Assembly: GCA_035285805.1 (NCBI GenBank)
Contig: JAYKJE010000021.1
Coordinates: 12,267-76,266, forward strand
DNA length: 64,000 nt
Direction of reading: 5' to 3'
Origin: a bacterium
Lineage (GTDB): Bacteria > Cyanobacteriota > Sericytochromatia > S15B-MN24 > UBA4093
Both the position numbers and the translations under genes were made by a program. Positions 2,943-54,200 of the stretch are shown here, piece after piece; position 1 is the stretch's first letter; the number at the start of each line of letters is the position of its first letter. Below the pieces are notes generated by a model. The model did no database searches, had not been told where the DNA came from, and saw only the letters and a program-made list of their open reading frames with translations.

Positions 2943-4633
2943 CCGGCGCGCGTGTCCGTATCCTGCCCCTGGGAGGGCTGGGAGAGATCGGCAAGAACAT
3001 GTGGGCCGTCGAGACGGATGACGACCTCGTCATCCTCGACTGTGGTTTCGCCTTCCCCACCGACGAGATGACGGGCGTCGATTACGTCCTGCCCGACTAC
3101 TCCTACGTGCTCGAGCATGCCGACCGTCTGCGCGGGGTGTTCATCACGCACGGTCACGAGGACCACATCGGGGGACTTCCCTTCCTGCTCCGCCAGCTCG
3201 ACCCGATCCCCACGGTCCATGCCACCCCGCTCACGGCGGGGCTCATCGAGGCCAAGCTCAAAGAGTATCCCCAGCTCCGGGGCCGCGTGCCCATCCAGGT
3301 CGTGAACCCACGGGACCGCTTGACCGCGGGCACCTGCACCATCGAGTACCTGCGGGTCACACACAGCATCCCGGATGCCTGCGCGATCGCCGTGCATGCA
3401 CCGGGTGGCACGGTGCTGTACACCGGCGACTTCAAGATGGACCAGACGCCCGTCGACGGGCAGTTCTTCGATTTCTACAAGTTCGCGGAACTGGGCGAGA
3501 AGGGTGTCCTGGCGCTCCTGTCCGATTCGACCAACGCCACCCGCGAGGGCTTCACCCAGTCGGAGCGCATGGTGGAACTGGGGCTGGACCCCTGCTTCGC
3601 CTCGGCCAGGAGCCGCATCATCGTGGCAACCTTTGCCTCGAGCGTCCACCGCGTGCAGTCCATCTGCGGCCTCGCAGAAAAGTACGGCCGCAAGGTCGCT
3701 CTCGTGGGGCGATCGCTCCAGAAGATGGCCGATCAGGCGCGTCGACACGGCTTCCTGACGGTTCCGGACGACCTCATCCTGCCCATCGACAAGATCATGG
3801 CCTTGCCCGACGAGCAGGTCTGCTTCATCTCGACCGGGAGTCAGGGTGAGCCCACGAGCGGGCTCACGCGCATCGCCCACCACGAGCACAAGCACGTCCG
3901 GGTCGTGGCCGGGGATACCGTGGTCCTCTCGGCCATTCCCATCCCGGGGAACGAACGAGCCGTCACGCGCGTCATCAACCGGCTCTACGAGCGCGGGGCG
4001 AAAGTCTTCTATGACACGAATCGCTCGAGCGCTCCGGGGGCAACTCGCCACGTCTCGGGACACGCGAGTCGCGAGGAGTTGCGGCTCATGCTCGTGCTCA
4101 CCCGACCGCGACATTTCATCCCCATCCATGGCGAGGCTCGCCAGCTGATCAAGCATGGTGAACTCGCCGTCGCCACCGGTGTGGCTCCGGAGCGGGTCCA
4201 CATCCTGGAGAATGGCCAGATTCTCGAGCTCGAACACGATGCCGCCGCGGTGGTCGGCTCCTTCCCGGCCGAGCCGGTGCTGGTCGAAAAGGGCCAGATG
4301 GTCTCCATCTCCGAGGCACGTCTCGATGAACGGTCGTCGCTCGGCACCCAGGGAGTCCTGTCCATCGCAGCCGTGATCGATCGCTCGGGACTGCTCGTGG
4401 CCCCCGTCAGCTATGCCCTGCAGGGCGTTCCTCAGGACCCCGTGCCCGAGAATTTCGTCGCCTTGCTCGAAGCCGCCATCGAGAGGGCCATCGGAGCGTG
4501 TCAGCACGAGGGGCTGGAAGAGCGGGCAGACTGGATCGCGAGCATCCGCGCTGAACTGGGTAAGACGATCCAGGAGGCGTTGCGGCGGCGACCGGTTCTC
4601 GTGCTTCACCTGCAGGAGATGTCTCCGGTCTGA
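2939..4633 (+). CDS. rnj: ribonuclease J (metallo-beta-lactamase / beta-CASP RNase)
   Basis: RILPLGGLGEIGKNM and HGHEDHIGGLPFLL motifs. The TTG start overlaps the dapA stop (TTGA). The remainder of the long 2024..4633 ORF is a frame-readthrough artefact. Confidence 0.85.
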   Translation: MTGARVRILPLGGLGEIGKNMWAVETDDDLVILDCGFAFPTDEMTGVDYVLPDYSYVLEHADRLRGVFITHGHEDHIGGLPFLLRQLDPIPTVHATPLTAGLIEAKLKEYPQLRGRVPIQVVNPRDRLTAGTCTIEYLRVTHSIPDACAIAVHAPGGTVLYTGDFKMDQTPVDGQFFDFYKFAELGEKGVLALLSDSTNATREGFTQSERMVELGLDPCFASARSRIIVATFASSVHRVQSICGLAEKYGRKVALVGRSLQKMADQARRHGFLTVPDDLILPIDKIMALPDEQVCFISTGSQGEPTSGLTRIAHHEHKHVRVVAGDTVVLSAIPIPGNERAVTRVINRLYERGAKVFYDTNRSSAPGATRHVSGHASREELRLMLVLTRPRHFIPIHGEARQLIKHGELAVATGVAPERVHILENGQILELEHDAAAVVGSFPAEPVLVEKGQMVSISEARLDERSSLGTQGVLSIAAVIDRSGLLVAPVSYALQGVPQDPVPENFVALLEAAIERAIGACQHEGLEERADWIASIRAELGKTIQEALRRRPVLVLHLQEMSPV

Positions 4634-4665
4634 GGCCGATTGCCGGGCGTCAAGGAGGCGAATCG

Positions 4666-6561
4666 TTGTCCAGAGAACTCTTGGTCGAGAAGTCCTGGGA
4701 CTTTCCTGCCGTGCCCGGTGCGGTCTGGCCGCTCGTCTCGGACACCAACCGCCTGACTCGACTGATGGATATCTCTCCCGTGACGTTCACGGTCGTCCAG
4801 AATCCCGATCCGGACCGGTTGCTGGGCATCACGGGTGAGGTCGGCGGCACGCACGTCGAGTATGACGAGAGTCCCTTCGAGTGGGTCGAGAACCGGTATC
4901 TGGCCTACCAGCGCACCTACCGGAAGGGCTGGGTGAACCGCTTGCGCGTGCACGTGGCGCTCGAGCCCGTCGAAGGCGTCACGCGTGTCACGCTTCGTGC
5001 CTGGATCACCCCGTGGCGCGGCTTGCGTCAGGTCTTCGGCAAGACGTTCGCGAAAGGGCTCCTCTCTGCTCATGATCGCGGCTATTCCCGGCTCATCGAG
5101 GGCCTGCGAAGGTCTCCCGCGGACCCCCATGCCGGTGCTCGTTCCGGTGAACCCGCTCCGGGGGCGAACCCGGTCGCGATATCGGCCATGAGGCTGGCTT
5201 TCGCGGAAGAACCGGCGGCGCGCGGCATCATCGACACCCTCGCGGATCGTATCTCCCATGGCTATGACTTCGAGGTGGCACGGCTGGCTCCCTTCGAACT
5301 CGCGGACCGGTGGGGTCTGGATCGTCGCGAGGTGCTCCGGGTCATGCTGAGGGCTGCCCACCGGGGCCATCTGCAGTTGCGATGGGAGCATCTGTGTGGC
5401 AGTTGCCGCGGTCCCGCCGATGAGGTCTCCAACCTGCAAGCGGTGAAGGTCTCGGCGTTCTGCCCCCGCTGTGCGATCGATACTCCTGCAGAATTTGCCC
5501 GGACGATCGCCCTGCATTTCGTCCCCGATATCCGGTTGCGCTCCGTGGACCCCGTTTATTACTGCGTGGGAGGTCCGGGTGGACGTCCCCATCTCGTGTC
5601 TCAGTTCCTCATGACGCCGGGACAGGCCCGGGAAGTCACCCTTTCCCTACCGCCGGGGGACTATCGCCTGCACGCGGGTCCGATCGCCGTCTCGGCTTTC
5701 GGTGGCCGGGCGGTGGATTTCAGGGTGCGGGATAGCCACACCTCGAACCGTGCCAGGATCGCCCTGTCCTCGGCCGACTCTGGCGGTCTCGTGCTGGAGC
5801 TTGCGGCAGGCACCCAGTCGCTCTCCCTCGAGAGCGATGCCGGCGGGCTCGTGCAGATCGAGCGACTGGCATGGGTCGACACGGACGTGACCGGTGCGAT
5901 GCTGGCCACCTTCCAGGAGTTTCGTAACCTCTTCCCGGACGAGGCTCTGGCAGAGGGGGTCGAACTCCGGATCGATCCGGTCACGATCCTCTTCACCGAC
6001 CTGAAGAGCTCGACGGCGCTCTACGAGCAACTGGGCGATGACGAGGCGTTTGCGCGCGTCCGCGACCACTTCCGGATCCTGGTGGAAGCGATCGACCTCA
6101 ACCGCGGGGCCGTCGTCAAGACCGTCGGGGATGCCGTGATGGCGGCTTTCGAGTCCTCCATCGATGCCGTCAGGGCAGCCCTCGACCTGCAGGCCGGCAT
6201 CGAAAGATACAACCGCTCGAGGCCAGGCAAGGAGCCCCTCGTGGTCAAACCGGGGGTGCACGCGGGACCTGCTCTCGCCGTCAGGCTCAACGGGCGACTC
6301 GATTATTTCGGAACCACCGTCAACCTGGCCGCCCGGGTCCAGAACGAGGCCCGGGGCCTGGACCTCGTCCTGTCGGAGGCCGTGGTTGCGGATCCCGCCG
6401 TCGGGGAGTTGCTCGCGTCGATGTCCGGGCATCGGCGAGAGGTCCGTGACGTCAGCCTGAAGGGCCTGAGCGGGACGCACGCGCTCACCTTCTGGTGCCT
6501 GGACCCGGAGGTGCTTCTCGGTTCTCAGGCCACGGTGGGCGCGGGCTCACATGGAGCCTGA
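4666..6561 (+). CDS. class III adenylate cyclase with an N-terminal SRPBCC-like domain and a central Cys4 zinc-ribbon region
   Basis: C-terminal cyclase homology-domain motifs FTDLKSST, VKTVGDAVMAAF and TVNLAARVQ (Lys and Asp specificity residues). The N-terminus resembles the polyketide-cyclase/SRPBCC fold. Middle motifs CGSC...CPRC are present. A TTG start with an AAGGAGG ribosome-binding site lies at 4652. Confidence 0.8.
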   Translation: MSRELLVEKSWDFPAVPGAVWPLVSDTNRLTRLMDISPVTFTVVQNPDPDRLLGITGEVGGTHVEYDESPFEWVENRYLAYQRTYRKGWVNRLRVHVALEPVEGVTRVTLRAWITPWRGLRQVFGKTFAKGLLSAHDRGYSRLIEGLRRSPADPHAGARSGEPAPGANPVAISAMRLAFAEEPAARGIIDTLADRISHGYDFEVARLAPFELADRWGLDRREVLRVMLRAAHRGHLQLRWEHLCGSCRGPADEVSNLQAVKVSAFCPRCAIDTPAEFARTIALHFVPDIRLRSVDPVYYCVGGPGGRPHLVSQFLMTPGQAREVTLSLPPGDYRLHAGPIAVSAFGGRAVDFRVRDSHTSNRARIALSSADSGGLVLELAAGTQSLSLESDAGGLVQIERLAWVDTDVTGAMLATFQEFRNLFPDEALAEGVELRIDPVTILFTDLKSSTALYEQLGDDEAFARVRDHFRILVEAIDLNRGAVVKTVGDAVMAAFESSIDAVRAALDLQAGIERYNRSRPGKEPLVVKPGVHAGPALAVRLNGRLDYFGTTVNLAARVQNEARGLDLVLSEAVVADPAVGELLASMSGHRREVRDVSLKGLSGTHALTFWCLDPEVLLGSQATVGAGSHGA

Positions 6562-6836
6562 ACGTTCCAGGTAGCGGCGCCCCCTGGACGTGATCGAGAG
6601 CGACCGGGGACCGGTGTCCGGGGTGCTCTGGCAGCCCACCTCGCAACCCTGACAGCCACCGGATGCGCAAGCACCGTCCATGGCGTGGGTTTCCAGATAG
6701 CCCATGCGGGTGAGGTGCGTCATCAGGTCGTCGTAGGTGTCTCGGGTGAGGCCGAGGCGTGACCGGAGCTCGAAGCCGCTCGGCCTCGGGGTGGTGTCGA
6801 GCAGGGCCAGGAGCCGGAGCAGAGGGTCGTTCATGC
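6547..6836 (-). CDS. feoC: FeoC-like winged-helix iron-transport regulator
   Basis: Small protein with a Cys-rich motif ([13 protein letters not shown]) immediately downstream of feoB. Its ATG overlaps the feoB stop (ATGA). Confidence 0.6.
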
Positions 6837-8834
6837 CCAGCCCAGAACGCGACCCAGCTGCCAGAGCCCGGCCCCGAGTCCCCAGGCGAGTCCGAGCCCG
6901 TAGACGCTCGCGAGCAGGGTCCATCGCCAGCTGAGTGTCTCACGGTGGATGGCGACGATGGTCGAGAAGCACGGGACGTATACGAGGCTCACGACCATGT
7001 ACACGAACGCGGACCAGCCGCCGACCGCCTGCTGGAGGGCTGCCGACAGGCCATCTTCCCCCACGCCATAGATGACGGCGAGAGACGCGAGCGCCCCTTC
7101 CTTGGCCAGGAAGCCACCGAACAGACTCACCATGAGACGCCAGTCCAGCCCCATCGTGCTCCCGAGGGGGGCCAGCAGCTGTCCGACCTGACCCGCGAGG
7201 GATCTCTCGATCCCGGGGCCGGGCCAGTGCGTGAAGACGAACAGGACGGCCGTCATCAGGGTGATCTGGGTGCCTGCTCGCTGAAGGAAGCCGCGTGCCG
7301 AGCGCCAGGCGTGGGTGAGGACGTTGCGCGGGATCGGCCGGTGATAGGGGGGCAACTCGAGGATGAATGACGAGGGTTCGCCCTGGAAGAGCAGCCGCTT
7401 GAAGAGCATGCTGACGGCGATGACGAGTCCCGCACTCAGGCCATAGAGGGACAGCAGAACGAGCGCCCCGCGACTTCCGGGGAAGAAGGTTCCGGCGAGG
7501 AACACGAACAGCACGAGACGCGCCTGGCAGAGCATCAGCGGGTTCACCAGGATCGTGAGCAGCCGGTCCCCCTGATTCTCGATGGTGCGCGTGGCCATGA
7601 TGGCGGGCACGTTGCAGCCGAAGCCCATCAGGAGTGGCAAGAAGCTGCGGCCGTGCAGCCCCATGGCGCCCATGACACGGTCCATCACGAAGGCGGCGCG
7701 CGCCAGGTAACCGGAGTCCTCGAGGATGGCGAAGAGGGTGAAGAAGATCAGGATGGTCGGGAAAAATCCCGCCACCGTCGAGAAACCGGCCCAGGGGCCC
7801 TCGAGCAGGAAGTCCGTGAGCGGTCCCGGTGGCAGGCCACGCGTGAGCCAGCCTCCGAGGGTCTCGAGCAGTCCGTTGAGCCGGTCTGTGAGGGGCCTGG
7901 CAAGCATGAACGTCGCCCAGAACATCCCTCCGAAGATCAGGCCCAGGAAGGGGATACCGGTCCAGCGACCCGTCACGAGGCGGTCCAGGCGGTCGGTCCA
8001 GTCGAGCGACCGGGAGGGACCACGCTCGACCACGCGGTTCATGATCTCCGTGAGCAGCGCATAGGCGGCCCCAACCCCTTCGGCCTCGAGGTCCTCGAGG
8101 CCCCGGGTCTGCCGCTCCTGGTCGGCGCGCATCAGCGCCGGTGCCCAGGCGGGCTCGCGGCGTGCCCGTGCGAGGGCTGCGGCGTCCTGTTCGAGCAGCT
8201 TCCGGGCCCACCAGGCCCGCGTCCGGGGCGCCCCTGCCTCGGCGGGGAGCAGGTCGGCGATCGCCTCGACGACCTCCACCACCCCGGGGGAGGCTTTCAC
8301 GCGCAGGGGATCGACGGGGCGCCTGTCCGAGGCGATCGCCTCGATGGCGGACACCAGGGCCTCGTGGCCTTCCCGTCGCTCGGCGATCATCGGGACGACG
8401 GGGACACCCAGCTCGGCTTCCAGGGCCGCCAGGTCGATCCGGATCCCGCGGCGTTCGGCCAGGTCGCGCATGTTGAGGGCCAGGACCAGGTGGTCCGTCA
8501 GCTCGGCGAGCTGGAGCGTGAGGTAGAGGTTGCGTTCGAGATTCGAGGCATCGACCACGTGGACGACCACGTCCGGCCGCGCATCGAGGATGTACTCCCG
8601 GGCGATGAGTTCCTCGGGGGAGAGCGCCGTGAGGCTGTAGGTTCCCGGCAGGTCAACGAGCCGGATCGTGAGGCCGGAGCGCCGGACCGTGCCTTCCGTG
8701 CGCTCGACGGTCTTGCCGGCCCAGTTTCCGACGTGCTGGTTGAGTCCCGTCAGGGTGTTGAAGACCGTGCTCTTCCCCACGTTGGGGTTGCCGGCCAGGG
8801 CGACCGTGAGCGTACGGGTCGACGGGGAGACCAT
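6831..8834 (-). CDS. feoB: ferrous iron transporter FeoB
   Basis: N-terminal G-domain [12 protein letters not shown] followed by a polytopic membrane domain. I chose the internal start MVSPSTRTL next to the feoA stop. Confidence 0.9.
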
Positions 8835-8839
8835 CGGCG

Positions 8840-9070
8840 TCAGAGGAGCTCGATGGCGACCGTGGCGGCGTCGCGGCGCCGGATGGCGAGGTTGTATCCC
8901 CGGACCTCGAACTCGACGGGATCGGCCAGAGGTGCCGTCCGGATCGCCGAGATGGCGGTGCCCGCGACCATACCGAGGTCCATCATCCGCCGACGCGTGG
9001 GACCGTTGCCCGAGATACCGATGATTCGCGCGCGCTGGCCAGGGGCCAGATCGCTGAGCTTCGCCGCCAT
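8840..9070 (-). CDS. feoA: ferrous iron transport protein FeoA
   Basis: 76-aa SH3-like FeoA sequence (GQRARIIGI...) directly upstream of feoB. Confidence 0.85.
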
Positions 9071-9086
9071 GGAGAAACCACCTATC

Positions 9087-9105
9087 GCAAATGAGAATCG
9101 TTATC
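9087..9105. promoter_or_regulatory. Fur-box-like operator upstream of feoA
   Basis: GCAAATGAGAATCGTTATC matches 15 of 19 positions of the GATAATGATAATCATTATC consensus. It lies 17 nt upstream of the feoA ATG in a feo/MFS divergent intergenic region. Confidence 0.5.
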
Positions 9106-9279
9106 AACTAGGCTATCCCCTGCCCCTGTTCATGTCAAGTGAACGGGAGGTGAACCTCGGGCGAATCCGGGTTCAAGGAAACCCTCGTCAAGCCGGTACG
9201 AGCCACCGGCCTTTCCGAATGTTCCTCCGATCTTTGTTAAGATCAGGAGGTTCTCACTTCCGAGCGAAAGGGTGCTCTC

Positions 9280-12629: not shown

Positions 12630-13490
12630 TCACTTCTGGGCGGGCGCACCCGTGAGTCCGGGGACCACGCCCCCGAAGTTGACGATGGCGTTGTTGGGCA
12701 CGACGAGCTGGATCTTGTCCGACAGCTTCTCGACGTACATCTTGCGGATGAGCTGGTCCGTGAGGCTCGCCGACACCATCCGGTTGGCGTCCGCTTCCGC
12801 CTTGGCACGGATCAGCTTGGCCTTGGCCTCTGCCTCGGCTTCCACGACCTGCTGCTGCGCCACGGTGCGGGAGCGGATCAGGTCATTTTCGGCCTGGGTC
12901 TTGGCCGCGATCGAGTTGGAGATCGCATCGGGCAGGAAGACGGCCCGGATGAGCACGTTCTCGATGGTCAGGCCGTCCGCCTTGAGCTCGTCCTTGAGTT
13001 CCGCGAGCGCGGCCGTCTCGACCTTCTTGCGTCCCGTCCCCGTGATGGCCTCGTTGAGGGGCAGCGATGCGAACGCATTGACGATCGCCGAGCGGAACTT
13101 CGAGCGGTAGTACCGTTCGACGATGTGCTCGAAGTCCATGCCGTAGTGCTGGTACAGCTCCGGGACGGCTTCCTTGCGGGCGATGGTGTATTCGATGCTG
13201 GCCTCGACGCTGAAGGCCTGTCCCTCCTGGGAGTTGACCTTGACGGAGTCGTCCTGGTTGGCAAATTGCCCTTCGTTGCCCTGGACCATGACGTACTGCT
13301 GGCGGATGACGGGAAACTCGATGATGTGCTGGCCGATGGGCACCGACAGGCGGTACCCGGGTTCCAGGACCTGGTCGATCTTGCCCGTGAGGTTGTTCAC
13401 CAGCAGGCCCACGTATCCCTGACGGACGTAGGTCGCGCCACAGCCCGCCAGCAGGATCCCCAGGGCGATCGCCCCCCAGACGCGCTTCAT
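12630..13490 (-). CDS. SPFH/band-7 (prohibitin/HflK-like) lipoprotein
   Basis: MKRVWGAIALGILLAGC lipobox followed by a band-7 domain and a coiled-coil tail. A GAGAGGAGAG ribosome-binding site is present. The upstream part of the 12630..13961 ORF is a frame artefact of the neighbouring repeat. Confidence 0.85.
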   Translation of the reverse strand: MKRVWGAIALGILLAGCGATYVRQGYVGLLVNNLTGKIDQVLEPGYRLSVPIGQHIIEFPVIRQQYVMVQGNEGQFANQDDSVKVNSQEGQAFSVEASIEYTIARKEAVPELYQHYGMDFEHIVERYYRSKFRSAIVNAFASLPLNEAITGTGRKKVETAALAELKDELKADGLTIENVLIRAVFLPDAISNSIAAKTQAENDLIRSRTVAQQQVVEAEAEAKAKLIRAKAEADANRMVSASLTDQLIRKMYVEKLSDKIQLVVPNNAIVNFGGVVPGLTGAPAQK

Positions 13491-13629: not shown

Positions 13630-15336
13630 GTGAAACGCTTTTGGACACGTGCTGCAGGGGCGGCGATCGCCCTCTTCCTGGGGCTTCCGGTGATGGCCGC
13701 GCCCGCCCGGGCGTGCGGGGGCTTCTTCTGCAGCCGGCAGCCCATCGACCAGTCCGGCGAGAAGATCCTGTTCATCCGGGATGAGCAGTCCCTCACGGCC
13801 ATCGTCCAGATCCAGTACCAGGGGGCCGCCGAGAACTTCTCGTGGGTCGTGCCCGTCCCGGCTCGCCCCACGGTCACCACCAGCTCCGACGAGCTGTTCA
13901 CCCGTCTCGAACCGGCCACGCAGGTCCAGGTCCGGCTCACGGCCTCGCGCACCGAGGGCACGTGTCGGGTTCAGGGCGGCATGTTTGACAGCCGGGCCAC
14001 GGGCCTGGCTGCCCCTGCGATGGCCGAGCTGGCCCGGAACGGGGTGAACGTGGTCGAGCAGGGGCTCGTTGGCCCTTTCGAGAAGACCATCCTCACCGCG
14101 GAGTCGGCCGAGGCCTTGCGCGCCTGGCTGAACGAGAACCAGTACGTCCTGCCACCGCGGTTCGACGAGGTCGTGAAGGGCTACCTCAAGCCCGGCTATC
14201 ACTTCGTCGCCCTCAAGCTTCGCCAGGACCGCGGGGTGGGTGACCTGGTCCCGGTGGTCTTGCGCTATGACACGGGCTTGCCCTGCATTCCGCTCGTGCT
14301 CACGAGCATCGCGGCCCGAGACGACATGCCGATCACGGCCTACGTGCTGGGCAAGGGACGGGCGGTCCCGACGAACTACAGACATGTGCGCATCAACGAG
14401 GCGCGGCTCGACTGGTTCAACGGGGGCAGTAACTACAACCAGCTCGTCACCGAGGCCGTCAACGAAGCGGGGGGCAAGGCCTTCGTCACGGACTGCGCCA
14501 CCCGCAGTGCGGACCTCGCATCCGTGGTGCGCCCGACCTATGACCTGACGCAGTTCCGGGGACTCGCCACGCTGGGCGGCATCGCCCGCGAGCTGGATCG
14601 GCAGGGCTTCCCTGCGGGTTCCCTGAGGGCGGGAACCCTCGGGGCCGTGCTCACGCGGCGATCGGTCGTGTTCACGGGCAACCTCGAGACGATGCTGGCG
14701 AATTCGGCGGATCCGGCGCTCGATCGCATCCGGATCGATGATACGACTCTCCAGGAGATGATCGACGCCCTCGAGGAGGTCTACCTGCGCCCCCTGCGGG
14801 AGGCTCACCAGGCCTTCTCGAAGGATTACACGCTCACCCGGTTCTACACGACCATGAGCCCTGCCGAGATGACGGAGGACCCGGATCTCGACTTCAATGA
14901 CCAGCTCCCGTTCGTCTCCAACGTGCACTCCGCCGAGGCCGTCACCCTCTGCGATCCGTCCCTGACGTTCGAGCAGGCTCCCGTCGAGATCCGGACCGCC
15001 AGTGGTCTGCGCTTCGCGGTCCGGCGCGGGCAGGTGCTGAACGATCCGGCCTTGCCCGCCTCGTCCCTCATCGAGGAGCTCAACACCCTCGATCTGGGCA
15101 AGGTGCTGAGCGATCAGGCGCCGGCCATCCAGGCGTGGCTGGGCAAGCATGCGAATTCCGCGTCTGTCCTGTCGGCCATCCGTGCTGCCGCGGGTACCTC
15201 GGGCTGTTCGTGCTTCGGCACGCCGCGGGTTGCCCGCGACTTCCACGACGGCGCCGGAGAAGCGACCGTTGTGGGCCTGGTCGGTTTCGGAACCTGGGCC
15301 CGGACCCGTCGGCGCTCCCGTCGGCGCCGCCCCTGA
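13630..15336 (+). CDS. secreted hypothetical protein, tandem paralog 1 (possibly COG4402/DUF2330-like, unverified)
   Basis: Signal peptide ending ARA followed by CGGFFC. It aligns end-to-end with the next gene. The C-terminal tail is SGCSC...hydrophobic...WARTRRRSRRRRP. GTG start. Confidence 0.75.
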   Translation: MKRFWTRAAGAAIALFLGLPVMAAPARACGGFFCSRQPIDQSGEKILFIRDEQSLTAIVQIQYQGAAENFSWVVPVPARPTVTTSSDELFTRLEPATQVQVRLTASRTEGTCRVQGGMFDSRATGLAAPAMAELARNGVNVVEQGLVGPFEKTILTAESAEALRAWLNENQYVLPPRFDEVVKGYLKPGYHFVALKLRQDRGVGDLVPVVLRYDTGLPCIPLVLTSIAARDDMPITAYVLGKGRAVPTNYRHVRINEARLDWFNGGSNYNQLVTEAVNEAGGKAFVTDCATRSADLASVVRPTYDLTQFRGLATLGGIARELDRQGFPAGSLRAGTLGAVLTRRSVVFTGNLETMLANSADPALDRIRIDDTTLQEMIDALEEVYLRPLREAHQAFSKDYTLTRFYTTMSPAEMTEDPDLDFNDQLPFVSNVHSAEAVTLCDPSLTFEQAPVEIRTASGLRFAVRRGQVLNDPALPASSLIEELNTLDLGKVLSDQAPAIQAWLGKHANSASVLSAIRAAAGTSGCSCFGTPRVARDFHDGAGEATVVGLVGFGTWARTRRRSRRRRP

Positions 15337-15350
15337 GAGGAGATCCCACC

Positions 15351-17147
15351 GTGAAAGCTCTGTCCAGGCTCGCGCTCGCCGGTGCCGTGTTCCTTTCCGC
15401 CGTGGCCGCACCGGCGCTCGCCTGCGGCGGCTTCTTCTGCAACCGGAACCCCATCGACCAGTCCGGGGAAAAAATCCTGTTTGTTCGGGACGGCGACCTG
15501 CTGCGCGCCATCGTCCAGGTCCAGTATTTCGGGTCGGCCGAGAACTTCTCGTGGGTCGTCCCCGTCCAGGGGCGGCCGGCCGTGGGGGTGGCGACCAACG
15601 AGGTCTTCTCGCGGCTGGAACCCGTCACGCAGGCCCGCGTCCAGTTCGATCTGCGCGATGACCCGGCCTGTGCGCGTTTCCCCCGGCCGGTCTTCGCGGC
15701 CAATCCGACCGCGATGCTGGATAGCGCGCCCCGCTCCGGTGGCGTCCAGGTGGTGGAGTCGGGAACGGTCGGGCCCTATGACTACCGCATCCTCGAGGCC
15801 TCGGATGCTGCCGAACTTTCCCGCTGGCTCACCGAGAACGGCTATGTCCTGCCCGACCGTTTCTCCGAGGTCACGAAAACCTACGTGAAGCCCGGTTACA
15901 CCTTCGTGGCCATCAAGCTCACCCAGAAAGCCGGAACGGGGGACATCGCGCCCGTCGTCCTGAGCTATCCCACGACGATGCCCTGCGTCCCGCTCGTCCT
16001 CACGAGCATCGCCGCGCGTCCGAACATGCCCATCACGGCCTACCTGGCGGGCCCCGGTCGAGCCGTTCCCGTCAACTACCGGCATGTCCGCATCAACGAG
16101 GCGCGACTCGACTGGCTCGGGCAGGGTAGCAATTACAACTCGCTGGTCACGGAGGCCATCGACGAGGCCGGCGGACGCGCCTTCGTGACGGACTACGCCA
16201 CGAGCAGCTCCGAGGTGGTCGAGGTTCTGCAAGATCGGTACGACGTCGAGGCCATCCGGTCGAGCAAGACCGCGGAGGGGGCGATCGCCCTCATCCAGAG
16301 CCAGGGCTTCACCATCGACGACCAGCTCCGGGCGATCGCCTCCACTCACGGAGTCAGTCTGCCCGTCTTCCGGGGCGGGTTCTTCCCGCTTCCGGTACCC
16401 GATGATGGGCCCGGTGCGACGGTGCCCTTCGATGCCGGGGGCCTGGCCGACGACCTCCGGGACAAGATCGTGAAGCCCCTGCGGGACGTGCGGGGCTGGG
16501 TCGGGAAGGTACCCTACGTCACGCGCCTGTACACCACCATGTCCCCCGAGGAGATGACGACGGATCCCGAGATCGACTATCACCTCGGCTCGAAGGACTT
16601 TCCGGACGTCTCGAACGTCCACCGGGCGACGGGCGTGCGTCTGTGCGGCGAGACGGACGACTTCTTCTCGGCACCCGTCGAGATCACGCTGCCGGATGGC
16701 ACGACCTTCCGGGTGGATCCTCGCGCCTCGATCACGACGGTCTCGCCGGACTCGGGAAGCGTGTCGCCAGGTCAGGGTCCTCTGCCCGTGGTCGCGGGGA
16801 AGCCCGTCGCATTGCCGGCCGCGGCCGTCATCGAGCAGCTCAACATCCTCGATGCGGGCGAGATCCAGGTCGACAACCGGCAGCGCATCCAGGCGATCCT
16901 GGCCGCTCAGGCAGACCCCGGACCCGTCGCAGGCGATTCGTCCGGTGGATCTGGAACGGCGTCCGGCGCCGGCGCGGGAGGCTCGGCCGCCAGCTCCTCC
17001 GGATCGCGTGTCACCGGGATTCCGGGCTGCTCGTGCGCGAATCCCACCGTCCCCCGGTCGTCACCACTCGACGGAGCCGGAGAGGCGGGACTGGGCATGG
17101 CCATGGGCCTCGTCGGCTGGTGGCGGGCCAGGCGAAACGGGCGCTGA
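15351..17147 (+). CDS. secreted hypothetical protein, tandem paralog 2
   Basis: GTG start after a GAGAGGAG ribosome-binding site. Signal peptide ending ALA followed by CGGFFC. The C-terminal tail is GCSC...GLGMAMGLVGWWRARRNGR. It includes a Gly/Ser-rich linker. Confidence 0.75.
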   Translation: MKALSRLALAGAVFLSAVAAPALACGGFFCNRNPIDQSGEKILFVRDGDLLRAIVQVQYFGSAENFSWVVPVQGRPAVGVATNEVFSRLEPVTQARVQFDLRDDPACARFPRPVFAANPTAMLDSAPRSGGVQVVESGTVGPYDYRILEASDAAELSRWLTENGYVLPDRFSEVTKTYVKPGYTFVAIKLTQKAGTGDIAPVVLSYPTTMPCVPLVLTSIAARPNMPITAYLAGPGRAVPVNYRHVRINEARLDWLGQGSNYNSLVTEAIDEAGGRAFVTDYATSSSEVVEVLQDRYDVEAIRSSKTAEGAIALIQSQGFTIDDQLRAIASTHGVSLPVFRGGFFPLPVPDDGPGATVPFDAGGLADDLRDKIVKPLRDVRGWVGKVPYVTRLYTTMSPEEMTTDPEIDYHLGSKDFPDVSNVHRATGVRLCGETDDFFSAPVEITLPDGTTFRVDPRASITTVSPDSGSVSPGQGPLPVVAGKPVALPAAAVIEQLNILDAGEIQVDNRQRIQAILAAQADPGPVAGDSSGGSGTASGAGAGGSAASSSGSRVTGIPGCSCANPTVPRSSPLDGAGEAGLGMAMGLVGWWRARRNGR

Positions 17148-17872
17148 TGCGTGTCTTCGCGCCCTTCGTTCTCGTGGCGTGCCTCGGGGGGTGCCTCTCT
17201 CCTGGTGCAGCTCCTGGTACGGCCCCTCCCGGACCGGTGCCCACTCCGGCAGTCCCCGCACCTACGCCGTATTTCGTGCCATCCATCCCCGAGGCGGACC
17301 CCTTTCCCCTGATCGGTCCCATCCGGCAGGAAGAGGGATTCGAGCACGGGCAAGCCAGCTGGCGAGATGAGCTTGCCAGGCCTGATACGCCGTCTGACCG
17401 GGTCGTCTGGCGGCGACTCCAGGGCTCTTTCTGTGGCGGCCAGTACGTCATGCAGGTGGGCGTCGAGGGCTTCAAGCCGTTCGATCCGATGCCAGCCGAA
17501 TGCGTGCTCACCGAACAGGCCACGATGTCGCTGGCGGGGATGCAGCGCCCCCATCTGCGATTCTCGGTCTTCGGCGTCGCGTATCCACCCGAGAGCCTCC
17601 GCCTGCAGGTCGAGGCGCGCGACCCGGCAGGCGGCGGATGGCAGCCCGTGGGTCCTGCCATCCGGGCGAGACATTACCGGACGGCCGTGTATTCGGCAGA
17701 CCTCACGCCCTGGGTCGGCGCGGACGTGCAGGTCCGTTTCCGGGCTCTCCTCGCCCCCGGCGAAAGGCCCACGCGCGGGATGCTCCTGGACGACATCGCG
17801 CTCATCGAGCCGCGCAACCTGCATCTCGTGCCGAGCGCGGCACCAGGCCTGGCCTGGCGTCTTCCGGGGTGA
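17147..17872 (+). CDS. hypothetical lipoprotein
   Basis: MRVFAPFVLVACLGGC lipobox. Its ATG overlaps the stop of paralog 2 (TGATG). A Pro-rich linker is followed by a beta-rich domain. Confidence 0.65.
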   Translation: MRVFAPFVLVACLGGCLSPGAAPGTAPPGPVPTPAVPAPTPYFVPSIPEADPFPLIGPIRQEEGFEHGQASWRDELARPDTPSDRVVWRRLQGSFCGGQYVMQVGVEGFKPFDPMPAECVLTEQATMSLAGMQRPHLRFSVFGVAYPPESLRLQVEARDPAGGGWQPVGPAIRARHYRTAVYSADLTPWVGADVQVRFRALLAPGERPTRGMLLDDIALIEPRNLHLVPSAAPGLAWRLPG

Positions 17873-23048: not shown

Positions 23049-23932
23049 TCAGCGGAACATGGGAGTTCGCGCGTACAGGTGGCAGGCTTCTCGCAACGTC
23101 CAGAGCACCAGGACCGCGTCGGCGAGGTTGATCCCGACGCAAAGGAGGGCCCCGACGACGGCCCATCCATGTGCCAGCGGGCCGGGCAGGGCGCCCGCAA
23201 GGGGCGATCCTACAGCCAGGAGCGGCAAGCTCATCGCGATCGCCTCGCGCACCGCGCACCATCCGAACCACGTGATGACCACGCTCGCGAGCACCTTGCC
23301 ACCACGGCCGTGCTTGAAAAGCCTGCGGGCGTGCGCGAGGGCAGGTGGCCCCCCCGGGGCTGCCACCCGGTGAATCGCGGCCAGGGTGGCGACCGCGAGG
23401 CAGACGAGCGCCAGCCAGACGATCGCGAGGGTGAGGACACTGCCAGCACCCCAGAGGGCACCCGATGCCCAGTCCTCCGACGGGAAGCGTCCGTCCTGCT
23501 GCGCCCGGAAGAGCGACAGGGGCACCAGGGCAGCGCCGAAGAGCAGGAGTCCGCTGGCCATCAGACCCGTCAACCAGGTCAAGATGGCCACGGGGGATCG
23601 CTGCAAGCCCTCGCGCCAGGAGGATTCCGATCGCTCATCGCCGCTGGCGTCATCCACCATCACCCGGATCCATCCGCCCGTGCCGACCAGCAGCAGCGCC
23701 GCCCAGAGGGTGTTGACCAGCCAGACCGTCCAGGGCGGATCCGGTATCGCCGTGCAGGCCGCGAGGAAGGGCTCCCAGCCCCGGGTCACCAGGGACCAGA
23801 GTGCCTCGCCCTCGGCGAAGGTCTGCTGGGCCTGGACGCTGGCCTGGATACCGGCGAGGCCAAGCAAACCCCCGACCAGGGACGAGGATCCCGGTGGCAC
23901 GAGGGTGGCCCAGAACGAGGGGCGCGGACCGG

Positions 23933-23936
<4 letters not shown>
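23049..23936 (-). CDS. hypothetical polytopic membrane protein
   Basis: Multiple hydrophobic segments. Its stop overlaps the lysS start region. I recognise no family. Confidence 0.5.
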
Positions 23937-51226: not shown

Positions 51227-54200
51227 TCAGGGGAGCGGCCCGAGTTCGAACACGTCGACGGACCGGCTCTTGCCCTTGACCTGGAGCGGTCCCACCGCGG
51301 TGAGCGTGAACCCCTCGTTCAGGAGCCGAGCCGTCGAGGAGCTGATCAGGACGCTGCCTCGCCGAGCGTTCGACTCGAGGCGAGCAGCCAGGTTCACCTC
51401 GTCACCGACGACCGTGTAATCCATCCGGTCGCGCGAGCCGATGTTCCCGGCGACCATCAGGCCTGTATTCAGCCCGATCCCGATCTCGAGACGCGCGTCT
51501 CCGGGCAGTTCTCCGCTGCCGTTGAGGTCGCGGACCGCCTGCTGCATCGCCAGGGCCGCAGTTGCTGCCCGGAAAGCATCCGTGCGCGCGTCGCCCTCCC
51601 CTGGCACGAACACGGCCATGATCCCGTCACCGATGAACTTGTCGAGAATGCCGCCATTCTCCGTGATCAGCCGTTCCATGCGGGTCATGTAGACGTTCAG
51701 GATCTGGACCACCTCGTGCGGAGCCATCTGCTCGGCCATCGTCGTGAACCCACGGATGTCCGCGAACATGACCGTGGCCTGGATCAGCGAACCCGACGAG
51801 GTCCTGGGGTCGGAACCCGCAGACACCTCGCGCAGCGCCGCCGAGGACAGGTACCGGGCCATCCGCTCCTTCTCGCGTGACATGGTCTTCTCGCGATGCA
51901 GGCTGTCACGCAGGTCCCGGAAGAGGACCGCCTGGTGGATGCTCAGGGCAGCCTGTCCGGCGATCGCCTCCAGGATGTCCATCTGACCGGGCCGGATGCT
52001 CCCCTGCTGGTGCTGGCTGGCGAGGTACAGGACCCCTTGATTGACCTCGTGGGCCACGAGCGGGATCGCGACGATGGTCTGGATCTGCAGGTCGATGACG
52101 GTCCGCGTGGCTCCGACGTGCTCGGCCGCATCCAGCATCATCAGGGACTGTCCGCGGGTCAGGACGCGCCGGGCGATCTGCTCGCTGTAAGGGGCTTCCT
52201 GGGGGGCGCCCACGCGCCGGTCGACCGTGCAGAGGGGCGTGAGGGTCGAACCGAGCAGCAGGCACCCGAACTCGGCCCCCGTCAGGTCCAGCGAGGTCTC
52301 CAGCAGATGCCGGGCCATGGTTTCGAGTTCGAGACTCTGCGTGACGGCGCGGTTGACCCGGACCAGAGCCTCGGCCCGCTCGAGGGCTGCTTCCCGCTCG
52401 GCGATCAGCGACGCGTGCCGGAGCCCGACCCCGACATGGCTGGCCAGGAGTCGCAACCACGGTGCGGGGTCCTCCCGGGGGTCGAGACCGGTGATCAGGA
52501 CGCCCCCCAGCAGTTCCCCCCCGTTGACGAACGGCAGGACGAGTTCATCCGGTGCCACCCGGAGGATGTCGCGCGTGCGGCGCGCATCATCCATCATGGG
52601 CTCGAGACGTTCCGGCGCCGCCTCGGACTGTCGTTCGCCCCCGCTCCCGATCCCCAGGATCCAGGCCTCGTCCTCACCGGTCAGCTCCTGCCAGAGCCAT
52701 ACCTCCGCTCCGCGGGTCCGGCGCAGGATCCAGCGTCCCACCCGATCGAGGAGCCGGCTGGCCGACGTCTGGCCCGCCAGCAGGTCTTCCATCTCCTTGA
52801 GGAAGTGCCGATCCGGCAGGAAGAGCGGAGCTGCGATGCCCAGCCCCTCCAGCAACTGGCCGAGCGGTGTCGCGAGGGCCTCGCTCAGCGAGCCGTTCGG
52901 CTGTCCGGCGGATCCGCCCAGCGACAGCCGATGCAGGTGATCGTGGATCCGCTGGCGCTCGCCGACCGACAGGAAGGCGCGGGCCTGCGAGGCGTCTGCC
53001 CGCTCCAGCGCTCCGGCGACGAACTCGTGCGCCTGGCTGACGAACTGGGCGCGGGCTCCGGGCGTCCGCTCGACCTGCGAGAGGGCCCAGGCCGCCTCTG
53101 CGGCGATGGAGCGCTGTCCGACCTGTCTGGCGAGGTTCAGGGCCTCGCGGCAAGCCTCGTGTCCCCCCTCGGCCTGATCACGGGCCGCCCGTGCACGCAG
53201 CAGCAGCGACTCCGCCCGATCCGAGCTACGCCCCAGGAGTTCGTACAGGCGACTTGCCTCCTCCAGCCAGGTGATGGCATTATGCGGTCGCTCGGCCTGC
53301 CATTCGAGATATCCGTGATGGGAGTCATGACCCGCTTCGAGCGCCGGGACCTCCCAGGCGTCGGCGAACTTGCGGCAGGCGCGCGCATGCAGTTCCGCGC
53401 GGGGTGATTCGCCGATCCGTTCCTGGGCGCGGGCAGCGGCCAGGTGCAGCCATCCCTGCCAGACGGGGTGCACGACCTCACCGAGGTCGAGGCCTCGCAG
53501 GGCCCACTCGAGGGCCCGGAGGTCACGGCCCAGCCAGCGCCACGCCTCGGCACCGACGTATCGGACCGCAGCCACCCACGGATCCTCTTCCCGGCCCTGC
53601 AGCATCACGGTCGCATCCGCGAGGGCCTCCTCGGCTGCACGGAGGTCACCGAGCTGCGCCCACCCGAGTCCCGAGCACGCCCGGGCCAGGGCGCCCCAGG
53701 TCCGGTCGGATTCCTCGACCAGCTGGATGCTGAGCAGGTCGAACTGGCTGAGGGCATCGGTGACGGGCCCGCACCAGAGGCGGTGAATGGCCTCGTGAAG
53801 CGCCACGCGAGGCTGATAGGCGTCCGGGCTTTTCTCGCGGCGCGCGAGAATCTGCCCGTGCAGCCGGGCATCTCCCCAGGTGAAGGCCGCATCGAGCAAC
53901 TCCAGGCGGGCGCTTCCCTCGCCCCCCCGATGTCCATCGAGCTCCACGGCCTCGGCCAGGTACCGGAATCCCTCGGCGGCTCCCCCGGGTGCCTCGGTCA
54001 GCAGGCGCCGACCCAGCAGGGTCCGGGCCCTGGCCCGCAGGTACGGGGTTCCCGTCTCGTCCATGCGGGGGATCCAGAGCTGGAGGGCCGGCACGGTCAG
54101 GCCCGGATCGATCTCCTGCAAGAAGCTGAGCCCGGTCTGCCAGTCCGTGGGCGTGGTCGCGAGGCTTCCCCAGCTCTCGAGGCGAGCCAGGACCAGGTCC

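Follow-up and report, generated by a model that had tools for sequence, protein, structure and literature searches.

Two adjacent genes in a 64-kb stretch of contig JAYKJE010000021.1 (the whole stretch analysed, hereafter the window) encode DUF2330 proteins that end in the same kind of tail, composed of a Cys motif, a linker, a hydrophobic segment and an Arg cluster. Is this tail a C-terminal sorting signal, as the first-pass annotation of the window proposed, and to which known signal, if any, is it related? The window is high-GC DNA (64–72% GC), and its nearest public genome records are metagenome-assembled genomes (MAGs) of Candidatus Sericytochromatia, with protein identities of 86% and 92% (loci L001 and L002). 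Sericytochromatia is a class in the Cyanobacteriota/Melainabacteria group. The explanation favoured here, by a modest preference, is that the tail is a lineage-specific, expanded MYXO-CTERM-type end-piece of the long DUF2330 family, into which a linker of approximately 12 residues was inserted once.

The two genes and the parts of their tails, as read from the translation, are as follows.

13630-15336, + strand: DUF2330 paralog A, 568 residues (NCBI MEB3186765.1; Pfam PF10092, E 2e-34; identical to P0001)
15202-15213, + strand: tail A, GCSC Cys motif
15214-15246, + strand: tail A, linker FGTPRVARDFH, 11 residues
15247-15264, + strand: tail A, DGAGEA (the G-x-x-E-[AG] motif abutting the helix)
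15265-15300, + strand: tail A, short Gly/aromatic hydrophobic segment TVVGLVGFGTWA
15301-15333, + strand: tail A, Arg cluster RTRRRSRRRRP (stop codon 15334-15336)
15351-17147, + strand: DUF2330 paralog B, 598 residues (NCBI MEB3186766.1; Pfam PF10092, E 4.6e-31)
17025-17036, + strand: tail B, GCSC
17037-17069, + strand: tail B, linker ANPTVPRSSPL
17070-17087, + strand: tail B, DGAGEA
17088-17123, + strand: tail B, hydrophobic segment GLGMAMGLVGWW
17124-17144, + strand: tail B, Arg cluster RARRNGR (stop codon 17145-17147)

All of the strings previously reported for the two tails (GCSC, DGAGEA, the hydrophobic stretch and the Arg cluster) were reproduced in place by translation. The hydrophobic stretch spans 12–13 residues rich in Gly and aromatic side chains; in tail A, 13 uncharged residues separate the Glu from the first Arg. 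Paralogs A and B score 119.5 and 108.5 bits against the Pfam gathering threshold of 24.7 for DUF2330, an assignment that concerns the passenger domain and not the tail. The two proteins, encoded in tandem, are 45% identical from end to end (E 3e-149). Because they are paralogs along their full length, the tail common to both reflects shared ancestry rather than an independent coincidence, and for the same reason their likeness is not independent evidence that the tail matters; the real evidence is its conservation in other proteins.

Conservation of the tail

The tail with a spaced Cys motif recurs in a clade of ~20 orthologues, whose named members come from MAGs labelled Sericytochromatia or 'Cyanobacteria'. 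Conservation was counted over 21 tails from independent metagenomes or MAGs, and the tail alignment and profile were built from 14. All 21 tails retain G-x-x-E-[AG], the first Arg and the Gly of the helix, and 20 retain GC(x)xC; the Gly and both Cys of the latter are invariant in the 14-tail alignment. The invariant positions of the tail across the clade thus read G, C, C, G, E, G and R. The protein that lost the Cys motif (P0013) retains G-x-x-E, the helix and the Arg cluster. Since the tail is conserved well beyond A and B, in 21 independent instances, it is more than a chance resemblance.

Conservation is unevenly distributed along the tail. Within the clade, the mean pairwise identity of GCSC is 65% and that of DGAGEA 55%; the helix reaches 39% and the basic cluster 40%, where the folded passenger stands at 43% and the linker at 15%. 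Variable in sequence, the linker is constant in length, with 14–18 residues (mode 16) between the Cys and the helix across the clade. The hydrophobic span comprises 12–16 uncharged residues, within which one Gly and an aromatic-then-Arg pair are conserved.

Relationship to MYXO-CTERM tails of other lineages

The protein search returned 182 homologues, of which 86 sequences entered the full-length alignment. Named homologues outside the clade are mostly from Myxococcota, with some from Planctomycetota and Phycisphaerae and one from a Parvularcula MAG, and many are annotated by the Joint Genome Institute (JGI) as 'MYXO-CTERM domain-containing protein', as is P0127, a clade-type fragment. The C-termini of the Myxococcota homologues read ...GCGCSSTEAGSAALLSLL..RRRR, and those of homologues outside the clade ...GCGCSSTEAGSAALLSLLAVLWSARRRR and variants thereof. 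In the full-length alignment, the second Cys of the window GCSC (C528) occupies a column with at least 90% Cys, the Arg clusters align, and the column of the first Arg (R560) is invariant in the 86 homologues. Two isolated Myxococcota tails and one full-length Myxococcaceae orthologue, taken as positive controls, pass the MYXO-CTERM model TIGR03901.2 with 26.8, 25.4 and 21.8 bits (cutoff 20). Since both the Cys column and the Arg cluster align with these orthologues, the window tail holds the position of a bona fide MYXO-CTERM domain. The likeness to tripartite C-terminal sorting signals that had been noted earlier is therefore real and due to common descent.

The clade departs from the other homologues in geometry. 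The last Cys and the uncharged run are 16 residues apart in A and B and 14–18 in the clade, versus a median of 6 in 89 other homologues. In Myxococcaceae tails, the helix is closely preceded by an acidic residue and Ala-Gly (TEAGS, TDAGS), so the simplest reading is an insertion of ~12 residues between the Cys motif and the pre-helix motif. In a neighbour-joining tree of the passenger domain alone, the 17 aligned proteins with a spaced tail all fall into a single clade, with the A and B types as sisters; the stretched tail thus arose once and was kept down to ~35% identity. There is also a weak direct similarity: when the clade tails were aligned with Myxococcota tails by hhalign, only the GCxC regions matched, with 85% probability, and the alignment did not extend across the insertion.

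Approximately 90 further metagenome DUF2330 loci, many with tandem pairs, almost all encode proteins ending in Cys, helix and RRR, which makes the tail a near-universal trait of the DUF2330 family and not of the organism's secretome. A metagenome scan for more loci of the clade yielded mostly Myxococcota-like relatives and one clade locus. As far as the aligned sequences tell, the end-piece of Cys motif, helix and Arg cluster is present on nearly every member of the long DUF2330 subfamily, and in Myxococcota it is the canonical MYXO-CTERM.

Two homologues, P0045 and P0059, carry a FlgD_ig-like domain (PF13860) in place of the C-terminal Cys-helix-Arg tail. This suggests that the DUF2330 family swaps its C-terminal end-piece between lineages, possibly with a different secretion or sorting route in these two proteins.

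Comparison with sorting-signal models

Full proteins and isolated tails were compared with the NCBIfam and Pfam models, with cutoffs of 20 bits for TIGR03901.2 and 15.85 bits for TIGR03382, and no hidden Markov model (HMM) of a sorting signal matched above its cutoff. The window tails A and B give no match to TIGR03901.2 and 8 bits with TIGR03382. Other clade tails give sub-threshold TIGR03901.2 matches of 8.1–13.3 bits that span the whole model with an insertion. The earlier statement that the tail matches no named signal exactly holds for each of the more than 20 clade tails, with 13.3 bits as the best MYXO-CTERM score. The PEP-CTERM model TIGR02595 does not match any clade tail at E<=10, and the GlyGly-CTERM and LPXTG models likewise return nothing. 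The IPTL-CTERM model comes near its cutoff on some clade tails (20.3 vs 20.5 bits), over the helix and basic part only, and the PFE-CTERM model also matches this part only.

By the criteria of Haft (bioRxiv 10.1101/2023.06.07.544157), the tail agrees with MYXO-CTERM in an invariant Cys signature near the C-terminus, often GCGC in MYXO-CTERM, and in a hydrophobic helix followed by an Arg cluster. It lacks the HMM score, a signature flush with the helix, the several to dozens of unrelated client proteins per genome, and an origin within Myxococcota or Bradymonadales.

Distribution of the tail among proteins

A tail profile of 45 positions, built from the 14 clade tails, was searched with HMMER against 1.84 billion representative proteins. 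The search returned 18 proteins at E<=0.001, namely four internal-repeat false positives and 14 full-span C-terminal matches. The latter comprise three known DUF2330 homologues and 11 DUF2330 proteins or C-terminal fragments recognised by the YLT..YTTMSP.EMT.DP block, so that the full tail was found on no protein other than DUF2330 among the 1.84 billion representatives. Because the proteins of the window MAG are in the parent collection, a third client with a tail as similar as those of A and B are to each other should have been found. A search with the helix-proximal half of the tail returned one DUF2330 fragment, a result uninformative as to other families.

A pattern scan of the window and eight other loci (six of them clade loci) found no other open reading frame (ORF) with a hydrophobic-plus-basic C-terminus, which is weak evidence because only about one such ORF would be expected even in a genome rich in MYXO-CTERM proteins. 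In the literature, no paper of the library searched mentions DUF2330, or Sericytochromatia together with a CTERM signal, and DUF2330 is not listed in the supplement of PMC11980579. Judged by these searches of protein sequence, the tail in this organism is a trait of one protein family and not a modular tag for many clients.

Search for a processing enzyme

Genes for a processing enzyme were sought in the precomputed Pfam annotation of seven contexts and by Pfam and NCBIfam searches with the multi-pass ORFs of the window. The multi-pass ORFs scanned were FeoB, a major facilitator superfamily transporter, ComEC and one 294-residue ORF; DgkA and a 7TM-HD protein were recognised through the orthologous locus L009. 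No multi-pass ORF scanned in the window gave a match to CPBP, the family of glutamic intramembrane proteases that includes the myxosortases (core domain NF040914). Genes for CPBP, rhomboid or exosortase proteins were absent from the four clade contexts (the window type, L005, L008 and L009), and no processing-enzyme gene was present in the two contexts of MYXO-type and Planctomycetota relatives. The absence of a nearby enzyme is of note because the protease gene usually adjoins that of the client in single-client systems such as JDVT-CTERM; for housekeeping myxosortases, however, this is not the case.

The candidate sorting signal of the first-pass annotation is thus upheld as a relative of a known signal, given that orthologous tails pass TIGR03901.2. 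The refuting condition that the annotation itself set goes against a general sorting system, since the tail was confined to DUF2330 among the 1.84 billion representative proteins and the window and four contexts held no candidate sortase; a processing enzyme may yet be encoded elsewhere in the genome.

Three candidates were set aside. The 294-residue ORF (23049-23936, − strand) has coding-like G+C content at third codon positions, matches no Pfam or NCBIfam model and is devoid of the EExxxR, FxxxH and HxxxN motifs; without CPBP or rhomboid motifs it is not a candidate sortase. When 932 kb of DUF2330 loci were scanned for crude CPBP motifs, one match emerged, a fatty-acid desaturase that carries His boxes (L047, 5304-6356). 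A TIGR00027/LCM S-adenosylmethionine-dependent methyltransferase gene in L005 (11622-12554) that extends over the 3' end of DUF2330 was considered as an analogue of CaaX carboxyl methylation; it is absent elsewhere, and the overlap is probably coincidental.

Predicted structure and membrane topology

The AlphaFold2 (AF2) model of paralog A, based on the 86-sequence alignment, has a mean predicted local distance difference test (pLDDT) score of 85.5 and a predicted template modelling score of 0.79, with residues 40–521 modelled confidently. The N-terminal CGGFFC region and residues 526–546, which run from within GCSC through the linker, have pLDDT values below 50, and a helix at residues 545–559 is predicted with low confidence. 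The low pLDDT at the Cys motif and linker places them outside the folded passenger, where a stalk or sorting region would be expected to lie. A Foldseek search of the PDB identified no solved relative of the DUF2330 passenger (best E 0.02, TM 0.18).

The N-terminal features of paralog A, read from the sequence, are as follows.

13630-13713, + strand: signal peptide of A, residues 1–28, ending in an A-R-A site (putative cleavage site)
13714-13731, + strand: predicted mature N-terminus of A, CGGFFC

Both paralogs carry such a signal peptide with an AxA end followed by CGGFFC (15423-15440 in B). Paralog B starts at GTG 15351, 8 nt after a GAGGAG ribosome-binding site, and its signal peptide begins there; the start at 15135 given by a mechanical ORF list was rejected, as the GAGGAG site, the signal peptide and the 598-residue NCBI product all fit 15351. 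The ACGG(F/L)FC motif is invariant or near-invariant in the 86 aligned homologues. CGG(F/L)FC is also the most conserved short segment of the protein, with 89% pairwise identity in the clade and low AF2 confidence, and together with the C-terminal GCxC it places four conserved Cys near both termini. A metal site or disulfides formed by these four Cys are possible.

The tail almost certainly acts as a stop-transfer anchor. In the proposed mechanism, the N-terminal Sec-type signal peptide (AxA site) would export the protein and leave CGGFFC as the mature end. The short Gly/aromatic helix and the Arg cluster would then halt translocation in accord with the positive-inside rule, and the DUF2330 domain would be left on the periplasmic face of the cytoplasmic membrane, on a disordered stalk of ~20 residues.

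Two fates of the anchored protein may be envisaged. That the helix stays as a permanent anchor falls just short of an even chance. Later modification of the Cys and/or intramembrane cleavage by an enzyme encoded elsewhere, by analogy with MYXO-CTERM and its myxosortases, may also occur and is given a slightly lower probability; the remainder falls to other readings. Processing of this type is consistent with the shortness of the hydrophobic span and with conservation within the tail (an invariant Cys pair, an invariant G-x-x-E and conserved residues in the helix); it is opposed by the 16-residue gap, the single client family, the lack of a nearby enzyme and the persistence of such tails on DUF2330 homologues that are labelled as from phyla outside the only two lineages in which proteins with the myxosortase core domain were found. 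In Myxococcus xanthus, MrtX cleaves MYXO-CTERM in a Cys-dependent manner, as shown for TraA, after which the cell surface is reached via the type II secretion system; prior lipidation of the Cys is hypothesised only (PMC11980579).

Several observations weigh against the expanded MYXO-CTERM-type end-piece as the explanation. No sorting-signal HMM, that of MYXO-CTERM included, reaches its cutoff on A, B or ~20 other clade tails. In all signals that intramembrane enzymes cut, the signature adjoins the helix (Haft, bioRxiv 10.1101/2023.06.07.544157), a no-spacer rule with which the 16-residue gap between Cys and helix conflicts. Client tails scoring below ~35 bits would go unreported in the profile search, and the window covers 64 kb of a ~390-kb contig, so that more divergent clients or a cognate enzyme could be encoded elsewhere. 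It is, moreover, not obvious why a permanent anchor should require an invariant Gly and an invariant Glu, conservation within the helix and a hydrophobic span of only 12–16 residues; by the argument that Haft makes for JDVT-CTERM, these hint at recognition by a membrane enzyme. In JDVT-CTERM, conserved residues in the helix are taken as a sign of recognition by an intramembrane protease (Haft, bioRxiv 10.1101/2023.06.07.544157).

Alternative explanations

Among the alternatives, a new dedicated sorting signal survives best and is nonetheless unlikely. An enzyme encoded elsewhere, CPBP/Mrt-like or other, would read G-x-x-E and the helix, cleave, and release DUF2330 to the outer membrane or surface, possibly after lipidation of the Cys. 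Such recognition would account for two conserved motifs around a linker of fixed length with invariant G, E, G and R, for a hydrophobic span that is weak and short (12–16 residues), and for conserved residues within the helix, which Haft regards as the mark of an intramembrane protease substrate; in addition, the orthologous tails of Myxococcota are MYXO-CTERM, for which cleavage by MrtX has been shown with TraA (PMC11980579). However, the tail occurs on one protein family only, and a distance of 16 residues between Cys and helix is without precedent among the known signals cleaved within the membrane. The gene for the JDVT-CTERM protease MrtJ is adjacent to its client in 16/17 cases (Haft, bioRxiv 10.1101/2023.06.07.544157), whereas the four contexts here hold no such gene and the multi-pass ORFs scanned in the window yield no candidate. 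That GCxC, the 12-residue linker, G-x-x-E, the helix and the Arg cluster together make up a previously undescribed sorting signal of Sericytochromatia and related lineages, cut by an unrecognised intramembrane enzyme (a new Mrt-like CPBP subfamily being the most plausible), is unlikely to a marginally greater degree.

It is improbable that the tripartite appearance is incidental. The tail would then be a plain anchor, GCxC (perhaps with CGGFFC) would form a metal site or disulfides of the passenger, and the Gly-rich helix would serve self-association or pairing of A with B. The four conserved Cys near both termini fit this explanation, as do GxxxG-type repeats of small residues in the helices and the metal-related genes FeoAB, CutA1, DHOR and ZIP/CobW near DUF2330 in several lineages. 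Also in its favour, Cys-helix-Arg tails persist on DUF2330 proteins labelled Planctomycetota, Phycisphaerae and Parvularcula, and proteins with the myxosortase core domain were found only in Myxococcota and Bradymonadales. Yet the GCGC-type motif of the Myxococcota orthologues is the generic MYXO-CTERM signature found on unrelated proteins, and the model places both Cys motifs in segments of low confidence, away from the folded core. P0013 keeps G-x-x-E, the helix and the Arg cluster without GCxC, and the helix motifs persist in lineages that have only one DUF2330 gene (L005, L008), so that pairing of A with B is not the general reason for them.

A divergent but ordinary MYXO-CTERM, processed by a genuine myxosortase in an organism with many other MYXO-CTERM clients, has even less to recommend it and is quite improbable. 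GCxC, the helix and the Arg cluster are all present and homologous to those of MYXO-CTERM-bearing orthologues, and lineage-specific forms of such signals need HMMs of their own (Haft, bioRxiv 10.1101/2023.06.07.544157). Against this, TIGR03901.2 and TIGR03382 remain below cutoff for all clade tails, and the organism belongs to neither Myxococcota nor Bradymonadales, in which alone proteins with the myxosortase core domain were found among 14,000 representative proteomes; sporadic MYXO-CTERM matches outside Myxococcota are treated as false positives (Haft, bioRxiv 10.1101/2023.06.07.544157). The absence of any other tail-bearing ORF from the window and the loci in hand points the same way, weakly, with about one expected.

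A PEP-CTERM-like signal, with G-x-x-E in place of P-E-P and an exosortase as the enzyme, can be dismissed as highly improbable: the invariant Glu right before a short helix and basic cluster would suit it and Cyanobacteriota are among the phyla with PEP-CTERM and exosortase (Haft, bioRxiv 10.1101/2023.06.07.544157), but the motif has no Pro, TIGR02595 fails to match any clade tail, the many clients per genome that are typical of PEP-CTERM were not found, and neither the window nor the fetched contexts contain an exosortase.

Genomic context

Two lipoprotein genes flank the DUF2330 pair.

12630-13490, − strand: SPFH/Band_7 lipoprotein, divergently transcribed (Pfam PF01145, E 6.4e-27)
17147-17872, + strand: lipoprotein of 241 residues with an LVAC lipobox and no recognisable family; its ATG overlaps the stop codon of B (TGATG)

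The Band_7 gene, a neighbour conserved within this sub-lineage, keeps its position in L007, L009 and L092 and is mentioned as context only. The 241-residue lipoprotein, which has no match in Pfam, NCBIfam or the PDB, belongs to the operon of A and B, being translationally coupled to B, and its gene is kept downstream of DUF2330-B in L007 and L009. The gene that follows DUF2330 in the Myxococcaceae locus L010 encodes no homologue of it. The whole block of Band_7, A, B, lipoprotein and dgkA-ybeY-7TM-HD-phoH is kept in relatives in which the identity of A falls to 73%.

Tandem pairs of DUF2330 genes on the same strand, ~1.7–2 kb apart, recur in L026, L028, L033, L050, L083 and L085, and pairs are also present in the window, L002, L007, L009 and L012; the arrangement is found in many loci that are unrelated, beyond the lineage of the window. 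Metal-related genes recur near DUF2330: FeoA/FeoB in the window (6831-9107, − strand), CutA1 in L005 (16761-17078) and in L008, and ZIP with CobW in L007 (27-2758). In L008, a gene for a DHOR di-haem protein lies directly upstream of DUF2330, and the metal-related genes of this locus are at 1539-2678 and 4335-4670. These neighbours could hint at the function of the DUF2330 passenger or could be coincidental. The window further contains a 1598-residue ORF of coding-like composition (51227-56023, − strand).

Implications

Cys-containing C-terminal signals and their CPBP myxosortases were defined in 2023–2025 and are thought to be confined to Myxococcota, Bradymonadales and few other lineages, with the signature always flush with the helix. 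Here a Cys-helix-Arg tail is borne by one family, that of the long DUF2330 proteins, in several phyla, and in one clade the tail is stretched by a linker of fixed length with both flanking motifs under selection, a variant that current HMMs miss. If the spaced tail is processed, both the taxonomic range and the substrate geometry of the sorting pathway widen. Should it be a new signal cut by an unrecognised intramembrane enzyme, myxosortase-type surface sorting would extend to sister lineages of the cyanobacteria, and its enzymes would act on a Cys 16 residues outside the membrane. If it is not processed, it provides a clean case of a sorting signal that survives as a plain anchor and would help curators to split true MYXO-CTERM from look-alikes. 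DUF2330 emerges, in addition, as an exported family that is widespread, has a confidently predicted structure and lacks a relative of solved structure.

Comparison with known sorting systems

The tail differs from the LPXTG signals of sortase A in having no LPXTG motif, and TIGR01167 does not match it. With PEP-CTERM/exosortase and with IPTL-CTERM, PFE-CTERM and WGxxGxxG-CTERM it shares a Glu right before a short helix that is followed by an Arg/Lys cluster. However, the motifs of PEP-, IPTL- and WGxxGxxG-CTERM are missing here, the near-matches skip the signature motifs, and those signals are without Cys.

The JDVT-CTERM/MrtJ system is similar in that its signal is tripartite and contains a Cys, which a second conserved motif follows (DP, as against G-x-x-E in the present tail), and in that it has very few clients per genome. 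It is dissimilar in that its DP, which has no counterpart here, lies 9 residues after the Cys and within the helix, in that it always has a single Cys in place of the two found here, and in that the MrtJ gene is almost always beside the client, whereas the neighbours here are Band_7 and the lipoprotein. The JDVT-CTERM model is absent from the NCBIfam matches at E<=10.

MYXO-CTERM, the substrate of the CPBP glutamic intramembrane proteases MrtX, MrtC and MrtP, has its Cys motif ~4–10 residues from the helix rather than 16, and its hydrophobic span is Leu/Ala-rich rather than shorter and rich in Gly and aromatic residues. The tail also differs in its sub-cutoff HMM score, in the organism outside Myxococcota and Bradymonadales, and in its one known client family, and no myxosortase for the clade tails was identified in the window and the fetched clade contexts. 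It nonetheless shares with MYXO-CTERM the GCxC-type signature, the helix, the C-terminal Arg cluster and an acidic and a small residue (Ala/Gly) before the helix, as in the ..TEAGS.. of Myxococcaceae, and it stands at the aligned position of the true MYXO-CTERM domains in orthologous DUF2330 proteins.

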